Sequence record: OZ346205.1
Direction: 5' to 3' (one strand)
DNA length: 64,000 nt
From: a phage
Shown: positions 1,485 through 64,000 of the stretch, in pieces
Layout: every line of letters begins with the position of its first letter
Position numbering within the stretch: position 1 is the stretch's first letter
The notes under the pieces: generated by a model
The model's database searches: none
Told to the model about the DNA's origin: nothing
Seen by the model: only the letters and a program-made list of their open reading frames with translations
Position numbers and translations under genes: made by a program

Positions 1485-2249
1485 TTGAAATTTATCTACA
1501 AAGAACACTACCACAAAGGTGTTGTGTGGAGCCTGTTTGACGGATCTGGTGGTGCAGTCATTGACTGGGCAAAAGCTGGGTATCTGTGCCTGTGCTTTAA
1601 TGCAGAAGGTGCTGATCACGGCAGTTATGCAGAGGTGATAACCGATCATCCCAACATTCACTATGTGGATTATTGGATTGACCCATGGTTCCCTCAGGAA
1701 ACTTTTTGCATGTACCCAGCTCCAGACTTTATTCTTGCATTTCCTCCGTGCACGCATTTAGCGGTATCAGGTGCTGCACATTTTAAGAAAAAGCTGGCTA
1801 AGGATCCTTTGATCCAAATTAATGCTGTAAAGGATGCTCGGGTTGCGGAAGAGTTGGGAGAGATTTACGATTGCCCGTGGCATGTAGAGAATCCTGTAGG
1901 GGTTATGTCCACACTGTGGCGAAAACCTGATTACCGTTTTCATCCTTCGGATTATGGTGGGTATTTACCGGAGGATGATGTAAACCCCTGGTTTCCTGAA
2001 TTTATAGCTCCACGTGATGCCTATCCAAAAATAACTTGCGGCTGGATAGGCAATGGATTTATAATCCCGGCCACAAAACCTGTCCCGCAAATAGTTGACG
2101 CGGTTAGCGGGTATTCCATGCAACACGCCAAGCTGGGTGGAAAGAGTGCAAGAACGAAGATGATCCGAAGCCTCACGCCACGTGGCTGGGCAAAAGCCGT
2201 ATTCTTAGCAAACGAGCCTGTAGTAAGGAGCAGAATTAATGGGAAGTAA
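1485..2249 (+). CDS. DNA (cytosine-5)-methyltransferase
   Basis: Motif I LFDGSGG, motif IV FPPC (catalytic Cys), motif VI HVENP; start placed at TTG 1485 after GGAGA because track start 1455 lies inside the terminator stem. Confidence 0.65.
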   Translation: MKFIYKEHYHKGVVWSLFDGSGGAVIDWAKAGYLCLCFNAEGADHGSYAEVITDHPNIHYVDYWIDPWFPQETFCMYPAPDFILAFPPCTHLAVSGAAHFKKKLAKDPLIQINAVKDARVAEELGEIYDCPWHVENPVGVMSTLWRKPDYRFHPSDYGGYLPEDDVNPWFPEFIAPRDAYPKITCGWIGNGFIIPATKPVPQIVDAVSGYSMQHAKLGGKSARTKMIRSLTPRGWAKAVFLANEPVVRSRINGK

Positions 2250-4317
2250 ATTTATGGCATCTGCATACAACCGTTTCGGTGAGCCAAACCCGAAAGCAAC
2301 TAAGTATAAAAGTGGGGGAAGTGTGAAACGAGACTATCGTGATGAAAAAGAGGTTGAAACTGTAGAGACTGTTTTAGAAAATACTAAAATCGTCCCTGTC
2401 CCACAACAAAATATCGGTCTGATGGCTGCACAATATTTTGGTGTGCGATCAGCATTATCCCAAGAAGATGGTGTGACAGTCACTGCAACATATTTCCCAT
2501 ATTACGACCGCTACGGAAATCTGTCCGGTTTCAAAAAGCGTGACTGGACGATTCCTAAAGAGCAAAGAGGCCATTTCTCCGTTGTTGGCATAGTAAAGGC
2601 TAACTCTCAGATGTTTGGTCAAAAGCTGTGTGCATCTTCCAACAACCGTAAGCAGATTAACGTTTGTGAGGGAGAAGGTGATGTTATTGCAGCATGGCAG
2701 GCTGCATATCAGATACAAGTAAAAGGGATTCTCACCAACGCTAAAGCCCCGGCAAAGGTGAAACAGTGGGCTAAAGAGGTCCAGGACGGGATCGATGCAG
2801 TTATCAACGGTGGCGATCTGGCAGGAAAACCATGCCTGCCTTTTGTTGGAATTAACTGTGGATGTGCAAACGCAGTAGATACTTTTGCAAACAATGAGAA
2901 GTTTATCCGTAGCTATGGAACAGTTGTGCTGGCAATGGATAACGATGCAGCTAACGAGGTAGAGAAGCAAAAACACGTCATTAAAGGTGTTGAGGCCACG
3001 CACAATATCGCAGCATTTTTGATGGCTGATAACGTTTACCACGTAGAATACCCTGGTGAAGTAAATGACCCTGACGGGGTAAAAGATATCCGTGACATGC
3101 TGAAGGCTAAAAAGCTGGAAGATATTGTCAACATGTTCCGGCACCCTGTTAAATATGTGCCTGATGCTGTGTCGGATTTAGAAGACTTCTCTATCGAGTC
3201 TTTGCGGAAAAAGACTTCCAACGGGGTAGATATCAGCGCAGAGTTCCCAAAACTGCAAAAAATGCTAAAAGGCTTGCACAAAGGGACACTCGTAATGCTT
3301 ACAGGGCCATCAGGGGGCGGTAAAACAACTGTAGCTAAAAAACTGGAACATTGTATTGCAAGATACCTAATGGACCCGACATGCCCGAAGGCTGATGACT
3401 ATGAAGAGGATGATCGTCTATGTATGATCCATCTTGAGGAGGACCCGGAGGAAGCAATTAACTCCTTGTATGCAAACCAGTTAGGGTTTGATGTTAAAGA
3501 GTTTGTTGAAGATCCTAGCCAGTTTTTAACTGATCAAGAACACGCAGAGATTCACCAATCATGGGCAAAAGCTGGAAAAATCAAAGTGTTCAAACATTTC
3601 GGATCTATTCCGGTGGACGAGTTGATTACCAAGCTTAAGCAAATGGTTTGCCTGTACCATTGCCGTTATATTGTGCTGGATCACCTGTCCATGGTAATTT
3701 CAGGGCTTAATGTTAAGGATGAGCGAAAAGAACTGGACATGGCTATGACTCAGCTGGCTGCGTTTTGTAAGCAGTTTAACGTGTTTATCTTAGTGATCGC
3801 TCACCTCAAACGTACAGAGATTGTGCCTCCTAAGGACAAGGATGGTAACCCGTTACCTTTCTGGTATCCTGTGCGAAAAGAGAATTTGCGAGGATCGGCG
3901 GGGCTTGAACAGTTGAGTTGGGTAGTCATAGGTGTCGAGGCCGAAGAAATGGTGGATCGTTCTCGTGGACGTGTCCGTCTGGTAGGTCTTAAAAACCGTC
4001 CAGCAAAAACTTTAGGTATTGCTGACACTTTGGTTATGGACCCGCACACAGGTAAGTTCCATGATGCCAGTAATTGGTACTGGGACAAAGAAATGCAAAT
4101 GTTTACAGACGGAGAAGGTGGGGAGGTTGTTTGGAGACCTCAGGCTATGTTTGAGGATCAGGAGCATGCAGTTGTAGAAACACCTATGGGCAAGGTTGTG
4201 GCTGATAAGGTTGTAACTCCTACTGTTAAGCCTGTTGACACGCAGGAAGACCTCCAGTACGATGATCCATCCTCTGACCCGGTCCCTGGTTTTGAGGATG
4301 ATGAAACGCCTTTTTAA
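2239..4317 (+). CDS. DNA primase-helicase (TOPRIM + DnaB/gp4-like helicase)
   Basis: TOPRIM-like CEGEGD and MDNDA; Walker A GPSGGGKTT; Walker B IVLDHLS; acidic tail ...EDDETPF. Confidence 0.75.
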   Translation: MGSKFMASAYNRFGEPNPKATKYKSGGSVKRDYRDEKEVETVETVLENTKIVPVPQQNIGLMAAQYFGVRSALSQEDGVTVTATYFPYYDRYGNLSGFKKRDWTIPKEQRGHFSVVGIVKANSQMFGQKLCASSNNRKQINVCEGEGDVIAAWQAAYQIQVKGILTNAKAPAKVKQWAKEVQDGIDAVINGGDLAGKPCLPFVGINCGCANAVDTFANNEKFIRSYGTVVLAMDNDAANEVEKQKHVIKGVEATHNIAAFLMADNVYHVEYPGEVNDPDGVKDIRDMLKAKKLEDIVNMFRHPVKYVPDAVSDLEDFSIESLRKKTSNGVDISAEFPKLQKMLKGLHKGTLVMLTGPSGGGKTTVAKKLEHCIARYLMDPTCPKADDYEEDDRLCMIHLEEDPEEAINSLYANQLGFDVKEFVEDPSQFLTDQEHAEIHQSWAKAGKIKVFKHFGSIPVDELITKLKQMVCLYHCRYIVLDHLSMVISGLNVKDERKELDMAMTQLAAFCKQFNVFILVIAHLKRTEIVPPKDKDGNPLPFWYPVRKENLRGSAGLEQLSWVVIGVEAEEMVDRSRGRVRLVGLKNRPAKTLGIADTLVMDPHTGKFHDASNWYWDKEMQMFTDGEGGEVVWRPQAMFEDQEHAVVETPMGKVVADKVVTPTVKPVDTQEDLQYDDPSSDPVPGFEDDETPF

Positions 4318-4375
4318 TGTTTAACAAAGAGTGGGAGGGGTAGTACAACCGCCTCCCCTTTAAGGAGAACTGTAT

Positions 4376-6799
4376 ATGAGTATGTGGTCTTTCGATTTTG
4401 AGTCATCCGGTTTGCTGGAAGACCCAGATCTTTATTATCACTGCGGTCTGTTTAAAGAGCTGAATAAGAACCGTTTTATGCTGTTCCTTCCTCTAAATGA
4501 CCGCACACACTACTCCGAGGAGGATATAGAAAAGGCTAAGAACTTCATTCTGTCAAAGAAAACTCTTTATAAAGATTTTGAAGTTCGCATAGCAGATTTT
4601 TCGGAGTTGGAAGGTTGGCTTACAGGCAATTCTGACTGGTCACCAACAGCTTTGAACTGCCATAACTGCTACAGTTATGACTTTATGCTAATGGAAAGAT
4701 TATCCGGTATTCATTTTGATATGTTCCGTGATCCTAAATGCATGGGGACTATCAACGACCACCAGGTTAACCTGTTTGATACGTTGGCTATGAGCCGAAT
4801 CTTGTGGCCTGATCGCCCTTTACCAAAAGGTTGTCCGGACGCTGTATTCAACCCGGTTACTAAGAAAATGCAACCTGTTGGTCCTCACGGCCTTATGGCA
4901 TGGGGCTACGCCCTTGGTAACCAGAAAGTTCAAATTGATGACTGGCGCGATCTTCCGTTGTGGAAGTATGTGGATCGTGTATTCGAGGACGTTATCATCC
5001 AGGAGCTGCTCTGGAAAGAGCTGGTAGCGGAATCAAAAGGTGTATTCTACGGCAAATCTGACATGCAGAACTTTATGTACGATCCAGCCAAAGAGAAGCC
5101 GAAAGGGTTCAAGAAGATCACCTGGAAGAACGCATTACGTCGAGGCATGCTGCAGCACTTCCTGATGGAGCTGCAGGCCCGTCAGGGTGTATACTTCGAC
5201 ATAGATGGAGCTATTGCTTTACGTGACCGTTGCGATGCGTGGATGAAAGAAATCGCTGATCGTGTTGAACCACAACTACCTTTAAAAGAGCTGTCAATGT
5301 CTCAGCGGCCCAAGTTCCCTGAAAAGCCGTTTAACCAAGACGGGACAATCTCTAATAATGGTTGGAAATGGTTAAAAGATAAGCTTGGCTATCCTGTAGA
5401 CATGAGTGCTTTAGAGTTCAAAGCCCCGCCTAAGCGAGCATTTACCTCTACAGGAGATGTCAGCAAGATGGGGATAAAATGGTGTGAAGAGATGGGCTGC
5501 AAAGACCCCGATAAGATGGCTGATTTCTTGAGAGGCTATATTAAGGGCACCTCCACACCACAACCCTTACCTAAAGAGCTGATGGATCAGGCAATAAGTG
5601 ATCTGCAGCAGAAGCGAATGCCTGACTGCAAGATACCTATGAAAATCAGCAATCAGGACGACATCAAGCGATACCTAATCAGTGCTGGTTGGCTCCCAAC
5701 AATGTGGAGAACTAAAGATGTAACTAAAGACAGCAAGAAGAAAGCTTTACCTGATGCAGATGTTGATGCACGAGTATATGCATATATGGACGAGCTTTTG
5801 GAGTCAGAGTATTGTGACCTAATTATCAACTTCTGGAACAAAACTGATGCTAAGTTCCAGACAACCGTGCACAAGTTCCGAAGCTTTCCTAACTCCGAAA
5901 GGATTAAAAAGGAAGTATTCGGGAAAATACGTAGAAAAGCCAGGGCACTTATTACTTCTCCGCAACTGAAAGATACGTTTGGACACCTATGCCCAAATCT
6001 TGAAAAATTGAACGGAGAGATGGCTAAAGATATCGTCTTGTGGTTATCATTGCGAAACCGCAGATCGGTCCTTGATCCAATCAAGGAGGATAAGGTTGAT
6101 ACTGGTCTTCTTAATCACCCACGTTTGAAGATTGACCATAAGCTTCCTGCTAAAAGCTCTGGATTAACAAACACTTCCAGACAGAAACACAGTATTTGTG
6201 CAAACATGCCTAAACCATCTCCTAAAGTGGTTATGGGTAAAGAGATGCGTAGTCTGTGGGGTGTTCCTCCGGGATACTTTGAGATCGGTATTGACGGGTC
6301 CAACTTAGAGCAGCTTATCGGGGCTTGGGGTGCCTTTGAGTTCGACAACGGCCTGTATTATGATGTTGTAAGTAACGGAGACGCACACCAAAACAATGCT
6401 GAGGCATATACAAAAGTGGCAGGCAGAGAGGTGTCCCGTAACGACGGTAAACCTATCACGTATGGGGTTATGTACGGGGCACAAAAAGATAAAGTTGCAG
6501 ATATGTTGGACATCTCCCCAGAGTTGGGACAAAGGGTAATCGATGCACTCTGGGATGCCAACCCAGGTCTTAAGGGGCGCAAAGAGGATCTGGAGAAATT
6601 CTGGGAAGCAACAGGTAAGAAGTTTATCTACTCTTTTGATGGTCATGCTATCTGGACCCGATCTAAACACTCTTTACTTAATGCATACCAACAAAATGGC
6701 GGTGCATCGTTGTGTGACTTAGTTGGAATACTCATGCACCACCAGATGGTGAAGCGTGGGTGGTACGATGAAGGTGTTCGTCGTATTATTTATTACCAT
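4376..6799 (+). CDS. DNA polymerase, family A (Pol I-like), exon 1
   Basis: 3'-5' exo motif FDFESSG; motif A IDGSNLEQ; motif B R..GKPITYGVMYG; frame ends ...RRIIYYH just before motif C. Confidence 0.8.
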
Positions 6800-7075
6800 A
6801 AATAACATTGTGGCTTCATAGAGTAATCTATGTCGAATAACCTCTTTAACTGCGGGAAGCCTAAACCTTATGGCAAGGTAATCCGCAACGAAGCGCTCAA
6901 AAGAGCGAACGCTCAGAGGCCATTCCGAAAGGAAGTAGACCAGCAAGTGCGGTCGAAATGGGAGGATTCCTGTGGTTGCTTATCATAGGAATATGAGATG
7001 GTCCGATCCTACGTGAAAACGTATGGCTATGCACGTAATGGTGCGGGGTAGCTTAACGACCTACCTGAACTATTG
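6800..7075 (+). mobile_element. group I intron (no ORF) splitting DNA polymerase motif C
   Basis: P-like ACTGCGGGAAGCC (6848), Q-like AATCCGCAACG (6880), S-like GAGATGGTCCG (6995); follows exonic U, ends in G; exon junction YYH|DE restores motif C. Confidence 0.65.
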
Positions 7076-7429
7076 GATGAGTACCAACTTCAAGTGCCTG
7101 ACACACCGAAGTATAAGACTGTGTACACCTTCGACACAATTGAAGAACTGGAAGCATTTAAGGCAGAGCAGGAAGCCAAACTTCATGTGTTCGACGGTCA
7201 TAAGTACAAAAAGGCACGCAAGGATGAGGACGGAAACGAAGTGGTTGACAGAGACGGAAACACGGTGTACGATCCTATCCTGAACGATGACGGAAAGCTT
7301 GAACTTATCTGGAGCCCTGTGGGTGAAATGGTGGTACATTGCTTCTGGCAAGCTTCTAAAATGATGGGAGTCCCGTTCCAGATCACAGGTGAATACTTGT
7401 GTGGTCGTAATTGGGGTGATTGTCACTAA
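7076..7429 (+). CDS. DNA polymerase, family A, exon 2 (C-terminus)
   Basis: Begins DEYQ (motif C completion); ends ...GRNWGDCH like Pol I ...GENWDQAH. Confidence 0.7.
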   Translation, partial: DEYQLQVPDTPKYKTVYTFDTIEELEAFKAEQEAKLHVFDGHKYKKARKDEDGNEVVDRDGNTVYDPILNDDGKLELIWSPVGEMVVHCFWQASKMMGVPFQITGEYLCGRNWGDCH

Positions 7430-60742: not shown

Positions 60743-60817
60743 GCCCTGTTAGCTTAGTGGATAAAGCAGCGGCCTTCTAAGCCGTTGACACTGGTTCGAG
60801 TCCAGTACGGGGTGCCA
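60743..60817 (+). tRNA. tRNA-Arg (anticodon UCU)
   Basis: Cloverleaf by eye: acceptor GCCCTGT/ACGGGGT, anticodon loop CTTCTAA, T-loop TTCGAGT, encoded CCA. Confidence 0.8.
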
Positions 60818-60821
60818 AATT

Positions 60822-60908
60822 GGGGAGTTATCCCGTAGAGGTAGCGGTGTAGACTGTAAATCTATTGTCATTGCGACTCGGGTGGTTCGACTCCACCACT
60901 CCCCACCA
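60822..60908 (+). tRNA. tRNA-Tyr (anticodon GUA)
   Basis: Acceptor GGGGAGT/ACTCCCC, anticodon loop CTGTAAA, long variable arm, T-loop TTCGACT, CCA. Confidence 0.75.
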
Positions 60909-61022
60909 AATTTATATTTTTAGATGCATAAATAATACAGATAATGGCATTGATATTTATCGTCGTTTATACTAGTCACTAACTGCTCGAAAATCAGTGT
61001 CATTATCAGTATAATTTATAAA

Positions 61023-61113
61023 GGAGGGTAGGGAGCAATGGTGCTCAAGCGGTATTGAAAACCGTCCCGTTGAGGATGACTCGATGATGGTTCGATTCCA
61101 TTACTCTCCGCCA
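61023..61113 (+). tRNA. tRNA-Ser (anticodon UGA)
   Basis: Acceptor GGAGGGT/ACTCTCC, anticodon loop ATTGAAA, long variable arm, T-loop TTCGATT, CCA. Confidence 0.65.
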
Positions 61114-61211
61114 CATTGTTGACCTTGTAATTAAGCGAAAGCCGGAAGCAGAACCGGATTATCAAATGTTACAGTCGTCATCGCCGACTAGCAACATGGT
61201 CAACATACTGA

Positions 61212-61310
61212 GCTAGGTAAGCCCTTTGGCAAGGGCGAGGATTTTTAATCCTGAAAATAGACGAGGTAGTCGTTGAATACATAGGTGGTTCGATTCCATC
61301 ACCTAGCACC
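61212..61310 (+). tRNA. atypical tRNA-like gene (99 nt; anticodon loop TTTTTAA, UUU?)
   Basis: Acceptor GCTAGGT/ACCTAGC, D-arm GCCC...GGGC, T-arm GGTGG-TTCGATT-CCATC, but 30-nt extra region and imperfect anticodon stem. Confidence 0.4.
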
Positions 61311-61315
61311 TTTTT

Positions 61316-61391
61316 GCTGATGTAGCACAATCGGTAGTGCAATTGATTTGTAATCAATAGGTTGTAGGTTCAAGTCCTGCCATCAGCACCA
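61316..61391 (+). tRNA. tRNA-Thr (anticodon UGU)
   Basis: Acceptor GCTGATG/CATCAGC, anticodon arm ATTGA-TTTGTAA-TCAAT, CCA. Confidence 0.8.
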
Positions 61392-61392
61392 A

Positions 61393-61467
61393 GGCCCTGT
61401 AGCTGGAAGGTTCAAGCAAGCGACTCATAATCGCCAGACGGTGGTTCAATTCCACCCAGGGCCACCA
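61393..61467 (+). tRNA. tRNA-Met (anticodon CAU; could be Ile-lysidine type)
   Basis: Acceptor GGCCCTG/CAGGGCC, anticodon loop CTCATAA, T-loop TTCAATT, CCA. Confidence 0.75.
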
Positions 61468-61478
61468 AATAGTAAATA

Positions 61479-61555
61479 CTCCGCGTAGCTCAGCTTGGTA
61501 GAGCGCCTGATTTGGGATCAGGAGGTCGAGTGTTCGAATCACTCCGTGGAGACCA
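61479..61555 (+). tRNA. tRNA-Pro (anticodon UGG)
   Basis: Acceptor CTCCGCG/CGTGGAG, D-arm GCTC...GAGC, anticodon arm CCTGA-TTTGGGA-TCAGG, T-loop TTCGAAT, CCA. Confidence 0.8.
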
Positions 61556-62375: not shown

Positions 62376-62659
62376 GAGTTGCTACACTGTTTATTGTGTG
62401 CTTGTTATTATGTGGGTGTGCAACCAGCGTTGAGAGAGAATACAAGATTGACCCTCCTGATGTAGGAAGGTTGATTGTTAAACCCCCGGAAGGTGCCATG
62501 AAACCACCTGCTAAAGCTATGCCTTTGAAGAAAGGTGCGCCAGATGCAGTGAATTCTGGCATTATGAGGGATAATAATCTGTCTTGTAGCAATGATAGAG
62601 CTAAATTGATCATTTTGCAAGACTATATTAGAACACTTTTTCCAAAGGAGAGAGGTTAA
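62372..62659 (+). CDS. o-spanin-like outer-membrane lipoprotein (Rz1-like)
   Basis: Signal peptide with lipobox LLCGC, Pro-rich mature part; AGGAGG RBS. Confidence 0.55.
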   Translation: MRVATLFIVCLLLCGCATSVEREYKIDPPDVGRLIVKPPEGAMKPPAKAMPLKKGAPDAVNSGIMRDNNLSCSNDRAKLIILQDYIRTLFPKERG

Positions 62660-63084
62660 TGTCTAAGATTTACGGACCGTGTTCTGAAAAGCAGAAGATG
62701 ATCCTAGAAAACGATGCAGATATTTTGGTAATCGGCGGTGCCGCAGGGTCTGGCAAGTCGTTCCTCTTGCAATTGATGCCACTTAAAATTATTGATGACC
62801 CCCACAGCTCTGTGGTTATGTTCCGAAGAACAACCCCACAGTTGGAAGGTGAGGGTGGATTATGGCCTAAAGCAGTAGCTATTTATAGTGATCTGCCTGA
62901 AAACATTAAGCCAAAGTTTAGAGAGAAGGATCATAAGTTCATTTTTCCACGGTTTGATCCGAACACTGGCAAGTGGGATAGAAGCAAAAAGGGAGCTGTT
63001 GTAAAATACTGCCACATGGAGTATGTACAAGATAAGCTTAACCATCAGGGGCTTGAGTACACCATGGTTTGCTTCGATGAGGGT
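62659..63084 (+). CDS. terminase large subunit, exon 1 (ATPase N-terminus)
   Basis: Walker A VIGGAAGSGKSF; Walker B-like MVCFDEG at the exon end; frame interrupted by intron. Confidence 0.5.
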
Positions 63085-64000
63085 TAATTTGTAGCTCTCG
63101 TAAAACCTCCCTAATTGCGGGGAAATCTTTATTATTGACACCACCAACCTGTCATGGTAACATGACAGAGGCTTCGAAGAGAGATCGAAGGTATGGTAAC
63201 AGTGTGTTAATTTAGATAATCCGCAGCGAAGCATCCGAGAGGATGAACGTTCAACGACTAGTCGAAAGACGTAGAATCAAGCGATTCGAAACGGGAGGGT
63301 GAATGTGTAATACTAAGAAATGTATGGATTGCCAAAGAGTTCTACCTATTGATGATTTCTTTTTATCATCTAAGAGCAAGGATGGATACTCAGGTACATG
63401 CAAGGAATGCTATATGTACTACAGGAAGGGTGGATCTCGTAAAAACAAAAATATGGTTAAGAGAGATGATGCAGCATTGTTTATTCAAGACTTGCTGAAG
63501 AAAGGTGAACTTTTTGAATGCAAATCTTGTCATGAAAGTATGCTCGCTGATAGTTTTTACACAAAACGTGACTATGGTAAAGTATATCTGGTTACGAACA
63601 GGTGTAAGATGTGTGAAAAGTTTTATCAGATTGAGAAGAAATTTCACATAACAAAAGATGAATACTATCGTCTACTCTCAGATCAAGATCATAAGTGTGC
63701 CATTTGTAGAATATCCCTTGATGAGTATAGGACGCAAGGGTATAGAGATTTCTTTTGTGTTGATCATGACCATAAAACTGGTGCTGTAAGAGGGTTGCTT
63801 TGTGATAAATGCAACAGAGCTTTAGGTTTCTTCCAAGAGGATGAGGAAACTATTCTTAGAGCGGCAGAGTATTTACACATTCATAAGATATAGTCTGGTC
63901 TGCATGGAGACATGCAGCTGCCTGAAAATGGCGGGGCAAGACTAGCGACCTTGCCCGAACATAAACGACACAATTCGAATGGGAGCAGATAGACTACCTG
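63085..64000 (+). mobile_element. group I intron with homing-endonuclease ORF in terminase gene (3' end beyond window)
   Basis: P AATTGCGGGGAAATC (63113), Q AATCCGCAGCG (63228), R GTTCAACGACTAGTCG (63249), S AAGATATAGTCTGG (63884); ORF 63303..63893 lies between R and S. Confidence 0.65.
63303..63893 (+). CDS. intron-encoded endonuclease VII / HNH-family homing endonuclease
   Basis: CAIC...DHDHKTGAVRGLLCDKCN motif; N-terminal CxxC zinc-ribbon repeats; GGGAGGG RBS. Confidence 0.6.
   Translation: MCNTKKCMDCQRVLPIDDFFLSSKSKDGYSGTCKECYMYYRKGGSRKNKNMVKRDDAALFIQDLLKKGELFECKSCHESMLADSFYTKRDYGKVYLVTNRCKMCEKFYQIEKKFHITKDEYYRLLSDQDHKCAICRISLDEYRTQGYRDFFCVDHDHKTGAVRGLLCDKCNRALGFFQEDEETILRAAEYLHIHKI

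Follow-up and report, generated by a model that had tools for sequence, protein, structure and literature searches.

The stretch of phage DNA analysed here (64,000 nt of record OZ346205.1, hereafter the window) is rV5-like Vequintavirus DNA. Its polymerase region (4376-7429) is 99.0% identical to those of Escherichia coli O157 typing phage 5 and rV5, and 96-98% identical to those of many other rV5-like phages. A primase/helicase gene with DnaB_C and AAA_25 domains (2239-4317) lies upstream of the polymerase gene, which is encoded on the plus strand in two pieces. Exon 1 (4376-6799) comprises 808 codons of a family-A (T7-like) DNA polymerase according to the ORF list, Pfam DNA_pol_A and an alignment with T7 gp5; its ATG is preceded by the Shine-Dalgarno sequence AAGGAG, and its last codon is CAU, encoding the His of motif C. 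The open reading frame itself continues to 6805 and ends ...RRIIYYHK*. Exon 2 (7076-7429, plus strand) comprises 117 codons and a stop, begins with GAU GAG for the Asp-Glu of motif C, and reads DEYQLQ... from 7076 to ...GRNWGDCH* at 7429. Inspection of the sequence before the TTG at 7073 revealed no Shine-Dalgarno sequence upstream of exon 2. Between the exons lies a 276-nt group I intron (6800-7075, plus strand) of the IA2 type, without an endonuclease gene; it begins with AAAUAA and ends with ...CUAUUG. Position 6799 is the U of the His codon CAU, and position 7075 is a G. An in-frame UAA stop (6803-6805, plus strand) is located two codons into the intron, and translation of unspliced mRNA would end after His-Lys. 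The preliminary description of this DNA placed the stop of the polymerase frame at 6805, the start of the next ORF at 7076 and a 276-nt spacer ending in G between the two, and all of these coordinates are confirmed by the sequence and the ORF list.

With 6800-7075 removed in silico, the gene measures 2778 nt and has 925 codons. In slur12, a close relative, the polymerase gene is uninterrupted and likewise 2778 nt long; it shares 96.9% nucleotide identity with the spliced gene of the window, with one amino-acid difference. Across the insertion point, slur12 reads ...TATTACCAT|GACGAA..., and this comparison fixes the junction at CAT|GAT. The intron boundaries are unambiguous because a one-base shift in either direction fails to reproduce the slur12 junction. 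The predicted junction in spliced cDNA is ...UAUUACCAU|GAUGAGUAC..., in a product 276 nt shorter than the genomic DNA, and the predicted junction peptide of the spliced polymerase is IIYYHDEYQLQVPDTPK (...IIYYHDEYQLQ...). In a phmmer search of the PDB with the spliced protein, T7 DNA polymerase (gp5, PDB 6n7w) aligned without interruption over the junction (E = 9e-16), with YYHDEYQL opposite WVHDEIQV (rriiyyHDEyql/aymawvHDEiqv). Exon 1 therefore encodes the motif C His, and exon 2 the pair of catalytic carboxylates. Joining 6799 to 7076 had been proposed to recreate the H-D-E of motif C, and both the length match with slur12 and the T7 gp5 alignment agree with this. Coverage of the Pfam DNA_pol_A profile extends from 137-261 in the unspliced form to 137-348 in the spliced form. 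The spliced polymerase scores 31.8 bits, a little short of the curated cutoff of 34.3, owing to its divergence. Judged by its sequence, the host gene is a family-A (T7-like) DNA polymerase with the motif C H-D-E.

A scan with the Rfam group I intron model, which had been put forward earlier as a check, matched RF00028 (Intron_gpI) at 6790-7025 on the plus strand over the entire model (1-253 of 253). The match scored 64.7 bits, above the gathering score of 50, with an E-value of 4e-14, and is therefore real and far from chance. The structure model was derived from the Rfam alignment, an unconstrained minimum free energy (MFE) fold and comparison with relatives; the MFE fold yielded the same helices (z = -2.47 against shuffles). 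All elements described below are on the plus strand. P1 (6796-6813), taken from the Rfam alignment, is a 6-bp helix in which CCAU|AA (6796-6801) pairs with UUGUGG (6808-6813). It holds the U6799·G6810 wobble of the 5' splice site, and the internal guide sequence spans 6806-6813. P2 (6817-6832) is the hairpin CAUAGA GUAA UCUAUG, and P3 is formed by CCUCUU (6841-6846) and GGGAGG (6960-6965). P4 (6851-6856/6882-6887), identified by the Rfam alignment, the pair counts and the MFE fold, encloses the short P5 (6859-6862/6876-6879), which is weak compared with the extended P5a/P5b of relatives. The P4/P5 segment (6851-6887) corresponds to the classical P and Q elements. P6/P6a (6889-6911; CGCUC AAAA GAGCG) was placed by alignment with the introns of APECc02 and SSE121 and by pair counts. 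P7 consists of GGCCA (6918-6922), which is part of element R, and UGGUC (6999-7003), which is element S, and forms a pseudoknot with P3.

Two hairpins follow the 5' strand of P7. P7.1 (6923-6934; UUCC GAAA GGAA) is connected by a GUA linker to P7.2 (6938-6954; GACCAGC AAGU GCGGUC), and the whole stretch at 6923-6954, UUCCGAAAGGAA-GUA-GACCAGCAAGUGCGGUC, is an IA2 signature. Subgroup IA2 is distinguished by two additional helices, P7.1 and P7.2, which are joined by G-U-A and lie between P7 and P3' (PMC3428280), and by this criterion the modelled structure is typical of IA2. P8 (6967-6991) is a 10-bp hairpin identified by the pair list, covariation and the MFE fold, and P9 (7010-7023) reads UACGU GAAA ACGUA. 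P9.1 (7031-7044; GCAC/GUGC) and P9.2 (7047-7065; GGUAG/CUACC with a conserved UUAACGA loop) lie beyond the Rfam model. The last nucleotide of the intron, G7075, is the omega-G. The first four nucleotides of exon 2 form a 4-bp P10 with the internal guide sequence (G7076·U6809, A7077-U6808, U7078-A6807 and G7079-C6806).

The helices are also maintained by covariation. In an alignment of only eight related sequences, with ORF loops trimmed and the structure derived from the window sequence itself, 94.5% of the cells are paired and 34 of the 74 pairs have changed on both sides. None of 500 shuffles reached the observed value, and sliding the pairing partners by 1-3 columns left 2-10 such pairs. 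Most of the unpaired cells, in helices 5-9, stem from a MAFFT misalignment of the trimmed R7 sequence around P6/P7, which was left untuned. The individually supported helices are P2 (5/6 pairs changed on both sides, 100% paired), P3 (3/6, 100% paired), P7.2 (3/6, 100% paired), P8, P9 (4/5) and P9.2 (3/5, 100% paired). In P9.1, one of four pairs has changed on both sides, and in P7, C-G is replaced by U-A and G·U by A-U. P1 is invariant and thus uninformative in this respect. The U·G pair, the terminal G and a P10 of 3-4 bp are present in all 15 family members (15/15). Together with the Rfam match and the covariation, these features establish the spacer as the ORF-less group I intron that the preliminary description had recognised.

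The longest ORF inside the intron encodes 52 aa (6830-6988). Its start codon is missing in 7 of the 15 family members, and read-through from that position extends for 7-52 aa. No ORF inside or overlapping the intron had a Pfam match, as expected from the earlier account of a compact intron without an endonuclease gene. A tblastn search of the 64-kb window with six endonuclease sequences from related introns did not find any homologue. The homing endonuclease gene by which a mobile group I intron is recognised is absent from the intron of the window, so on its own the intron is an immobile passenger: it is a ribozyme akin to mobile siblings, and is itself no composite mobile intron. In the rV5 RefSeq record (NC_011041), the polymerase is split into two "DNA polymerase" CDSs (gp223 and gp220), and two hypothetical proteins are annotated between them. 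The ORF of gp222 (3956-4114, corresponding to window 6830-6988) lies inside the intron, and that of gp221 (4149-4409, corresponding to window 7023-7283; 86 aa) crosses the 3' splice site. The two hypothetical proteins and the two-CDS polymerase are annotation artefacts. The rV5 reference annotation is wrong at the polymerase locus, and the correct product is one spliced enzyme of 925 aa.

Database annotations and a genome announcement already document the intron, and a member of its family has been verified experimentally. The 2013 study of rV5 described a 775-aa polymerase and mentioned introns only for the terminase gene (PMC3606486). A predicted intron interrupting the polymerase gene was noted in the announcement of the LL12 genome (PMC6658697). 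The LL12 record (MH491969) gives the polymerase CDS as a join of two pieces, labelled "intron-interrupted gene". The polymerase of RudolfGeigy (MZ501102), a member of the BASEL collection, is likewise annotated as a join, and the paper on that collection set intron boundaries by comparative genomics. The introns of LL12 and RudolfGeigy are 276 nt long, 100% identical to that of the window and inserted at the same site of the same gene. They do not differ from it in anything of substance, and the splice sites given in their records are homology-based predictions only. For the polymerase intron of Pectobacterium phage CB7 (Certrevirus, Vequintavirinae), splicing was demonstrated by RT-PCR and Sanger sequencing (PMC7344957). 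This intron lies between CB7_51 (...IIYYH) and CB7_49 (DEYQLEV...) and carries the HNH gene CB7_50. It shares with the intron of the window the insertion point ...IIYYH|DEYQL... and the conserved 5' end AAGUAACAUUGUGGCUU, and is approximately 75% identical to it in the P7.2-P9.2 region. In contrast to the intron of the window, in which the P6a loop has only 4 nt and no ORF, the CB7 intron is 687 nt long and contains an HNH_3 gene (Pfam E = 3.8e-8) that precedes the 5' strand of P7 and lies in the peripheral P5/P6 region. By homology to this spliced family member, the intron of the window is probably catalytic as well.

The best explanation for these data, with a probability of roughly 0.93, is that 6800-7075 is a group I intron of subgroup IA2 in the T7-like family-A DNA polymerase gene of an rV5-like coliphage, with splicing predicted. 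The polymerase gene would be transcribed as a single pre-mRNA, in which the intron would fold into the P1-P9.2 ribozyme. An external guanosine would attack after U6799, which the U·G pair of P1 keeps in place. The freed 3'-OH of exon 1, aligned by P10, would then attack after the terminal G7075, and CAU would be joined to GAU GAG, giving a 925-aa polymerase with an intact motif C H-D-E. On RNA that remained unspliced, translation would stop at the UAA at 6803-6805, giving a product devoid of the catalytic Asp and Glu. The intron must be removed for a functional polymerase to be made. The locus does not change the current understanding of phage group I introns.

Residue 881 in the standard Klenow numbering is the His of motif C (H881-D882-E883) and hence the position of the insertion in the window. 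The polymerase introns of the T7-like phages ΦI and W31 belong to group IA2, carry an HNH ORF in P6a and have been reported from "site 881", numbered after E. coli Pol I (PMC3428280). They resemble the intron of the window in their T7-type family-A polymerase host and in being IA2 introns with P7.1/P7.2, and the location of their HNH ORF in P6a is shared with the APECc02 and SSE121 siblings. They differ from the intron of the window in the presence of an endonuclease gene and in their hosts, which are podoviruses, whereas the phage of the window is a 137-kb myovirus. ΦI and W31 (AY769989/AY769990) were likened to the intron of the window by site and description, and the likeness may reflect either homology or convergence. 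The polymerase introns of SPO1, SP82, Bastille and Pf-WMP3 lie elsewhere, at site 674 (E. coli numbering) within the fingers subdomain, and have nicking HNH endonucleases (PMC3428280).

The members of the family to which the intron of the window belongs share the insertion point, the 5' end AA[A/G/C]...AUUGUGGCUU and the 3' end ...AACGA...AAC..G|GAUGA. ORF-less relatives of 254-329 nt are present in JLBYU08, HMD-6, Avunavirus 18-1-2, Vibrio phage K470 and an IMG/VR contig. Relatives of 687-846 nt in APECc02, SSE121, Csp-D17, phiTE and CB7 carry an HNH gene, which in APECc02 and SSE121 is located in the P6 loop. Those of Salmonella phage R7 and an IMG/VR contig (919 nt) carry a LAGLIDADG gene after the 5' strand of P7, in the P7.1 region. 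A further member is found in Pseudomonas Pakpunavirus SPA01. The APECc02 intron escaped Rfam at the gathering score, probably on account of its 500-nt P6 ORF, and was recognised by alignment instead. The locus offers a natural series in which one ribozyme at one motif C site occurs without cargo, with HNH cargo in P6 or with LAGLIDADG cargo in the P7.1 region. This series spans phages of Escherichia, Salmonella, Cronobacter, Pectobacterium, Vibrio and Pseudomonas, and could be useful for studying the gain and loss of endonuclease genes by introns.

The 276-nt form itself occurs at an identity of at least 97.5% in 24 records, 19 of which are at 100%. A search with a 40-aa junction peptide, which at E <= 1e-8 can be matched by an uninterrupted gene only, identified 58 phage records with an uninterrupted junction at an identity of at least 99%. 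The flanking 172 aa are encoded at an identity of at least 95% in approximately 117 records, and therefore roughly half of the close relatives have no intron. The introns of RudolfGeigy, navn, LL12 and C5 are identical to that of the window in 276 of 276 positions, while their polymerase exons differ from those of the window by 2.2-4.0%. Had the intron diverged as fast as the exons, it should show 6-11 differences instead of none (P = 2e-3 to 1e-5). Next to the intron, no more than about 55 nt of exon 1 and 17-70 nt of exon 2 are free of mismatches.

This pattern raises the question of whether an intron that splices is also non-neutral for the phage. It may be retained because its presence disrupts the site that the HNH or LAGLIDADG endonucleases of its siblings recognise and so confers immunity in mixed infections, and it may move in trans by means of these or of free-standing endonucleases, a process called collaborative homing, which has been documented for ORF-less phage introns (PMC3984707). 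The identity of the intron amid diverged exons, the short mismatch-free tract, the polymorphism of the site for intron presence and the existence of endonuclease-bearing siblings at the same site all speak in favour of such a role, which we regard as a tentative extension of the splicing model. Strong purifying selection on a compact ribozyme could equally keep the intron invariant, and the window contains no homologue of the sibling endonucleases. The exon flanks also count against it. The first four codons of exon 2 (window 7076-7087) occur in two silent-site haplotypes, GAT GAG TAC CAA and GAC GAA TAT CAG, which do not segregate with intron presence among Vequintaviruses. The sole exception is the T at +3, a partner in P10, which is found in all intron-containing alleles. 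The exon-flank haplotype was accordingly rejected as a co-conversion signature of homing. Since intron-less alleles such as those of Murica and JohannBauhin have the same exon flanks as intron-containing ones, the flanks do not mark a clear co-conversion history. The sequence identity of the introns appears to fit recent lateral spread with short co-conversion tracts and strong ribozyme constraint alike. It is conceivable, if rather doubtful, that the 276-nt ribozyme is spreading or has recently spread horizontally among Vequintavirus genomes by homing in trans, and that it is perhaps kept as a shield of the polymerase gene.

Far less probable is a decayed relic that no longer splices, with a polymerase made as two polypeptides (809 aa and approximately 117 aa) that assemble after translation in the manner reported for NrdA of Aeromonas phage Aeh1, which is split. 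Phage genes interrupted by inserts that do not splice are indeed known, as in Aeh1 NrdA and CB7_245 (cited in PMC7344957), the TTG at 7073 is a formally possible start for exon 2, and the rV5 RefSeq record lists two separate polymerase CDSs. Against decay stand the full ribozyme core scoring above the Rfam cutoff, the helices kept by compensatory changes, the intact P1, P10 and omega-G in all members, and the 276/276 identity across diverged genomes, which is not expected of a decaying relic. Whereas the true start of the polymerase has AAGGAG, no Shine-Dalgarno sequence precedes 7073; this argues against a two-polypeptide enzyme, and independent translation of exon 2 was rejected on this ground. 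Two polypeptides would also part the His from the catalytic Asp-Glu inside a single motif. An intein at 6800-7075 was rejected because of the in-frame stop at its second codon and the match to an RNA fold. A chance resemblance or assembly artefact, with the two frames belonging to unrelated genes, has nothing in its favour and a negligible probability, as it is refuted by the Rfam match (E = 4e-14), the recurrence of the same insert in more than 20 independent genome records, the slur12 gene and the contiguity of exon 2 with exon 1 in 58 other records.

Several records of related polymerase genes have features of their own. Approximately 16 records of "Campylobacter phage" (MG065635-MG065690; A142, C5, D1 and others) contain a polymerase 96-98% identical to those of E. 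coli rV5-like phages and an identical intron. These Campylobacter jejuni phage records are marked UNVERIFIED and look mislabelled or contaminated. In Escherichia phage 241Ecol014PP (186-3584), exon 1 of the polymerase is 3399 nt long compared with 2430 nt, with approximately 969 nt of additional in-frame sequence, and is followed by the same 276-nt intron; this segment probably represents an intein or some other insertion that keeps the frame. Further group I introns or endonuclease genes are present at a second, upstream site of the polymerase gene in SSE121 (858-1499), 18-1-2 (approximately 437-1155) and CB7 (2458-3170), in coordinates of the sequences compared. The polymerase gene of the window has the motif C intron only.

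A second group I intron is present in the window in the gene for the terminase large subunit (approximately 63086-63917 within 63075-63917, plus strand; 48.7 bits against a cutoff of 50, E = 2.5e-9). It follows a fragment with the Terminase_6N domain (ORF 62659-63087) and runs to the edge of the window, with the 3' exon out of view. It is the terminase intron reported for rV5 (PMC3606486). The terminase and polymerase introns have a related group I core; the terminase intron differs in its host gene and in containing an ORF for a 196-aa protein of the Endonuclease VII type (63303-63893). Within it, a 37-nt stretch covering P4'-P6-J6/7 (63216-63252), UAAUCCGCAGCGAAGCAUCCGAGAGGAUGAACGUUCA (TAATCCGCAGCGAAGCATCCGAGAGGATGAACGTTCA), is identical to the polymerase-intron variants of JLBYU08 and HMD-6, suggesting that introns of different host genes may have exchanged modules.

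A cluster of seven tRNA genes is also located in the window (60743-61555, plus strand). Six of these are Arg-TCT, Tyr-GTA, Ser-TGA, Thr-TGT, Met-CAT and Pro-TGG. The seventh (61212-61310, 99 nt) is unusual: it scored only 35.5 bits with the Rfam tRNA model and was called "tRNA-???" by ARAGORN, with a 4-base anticodon.
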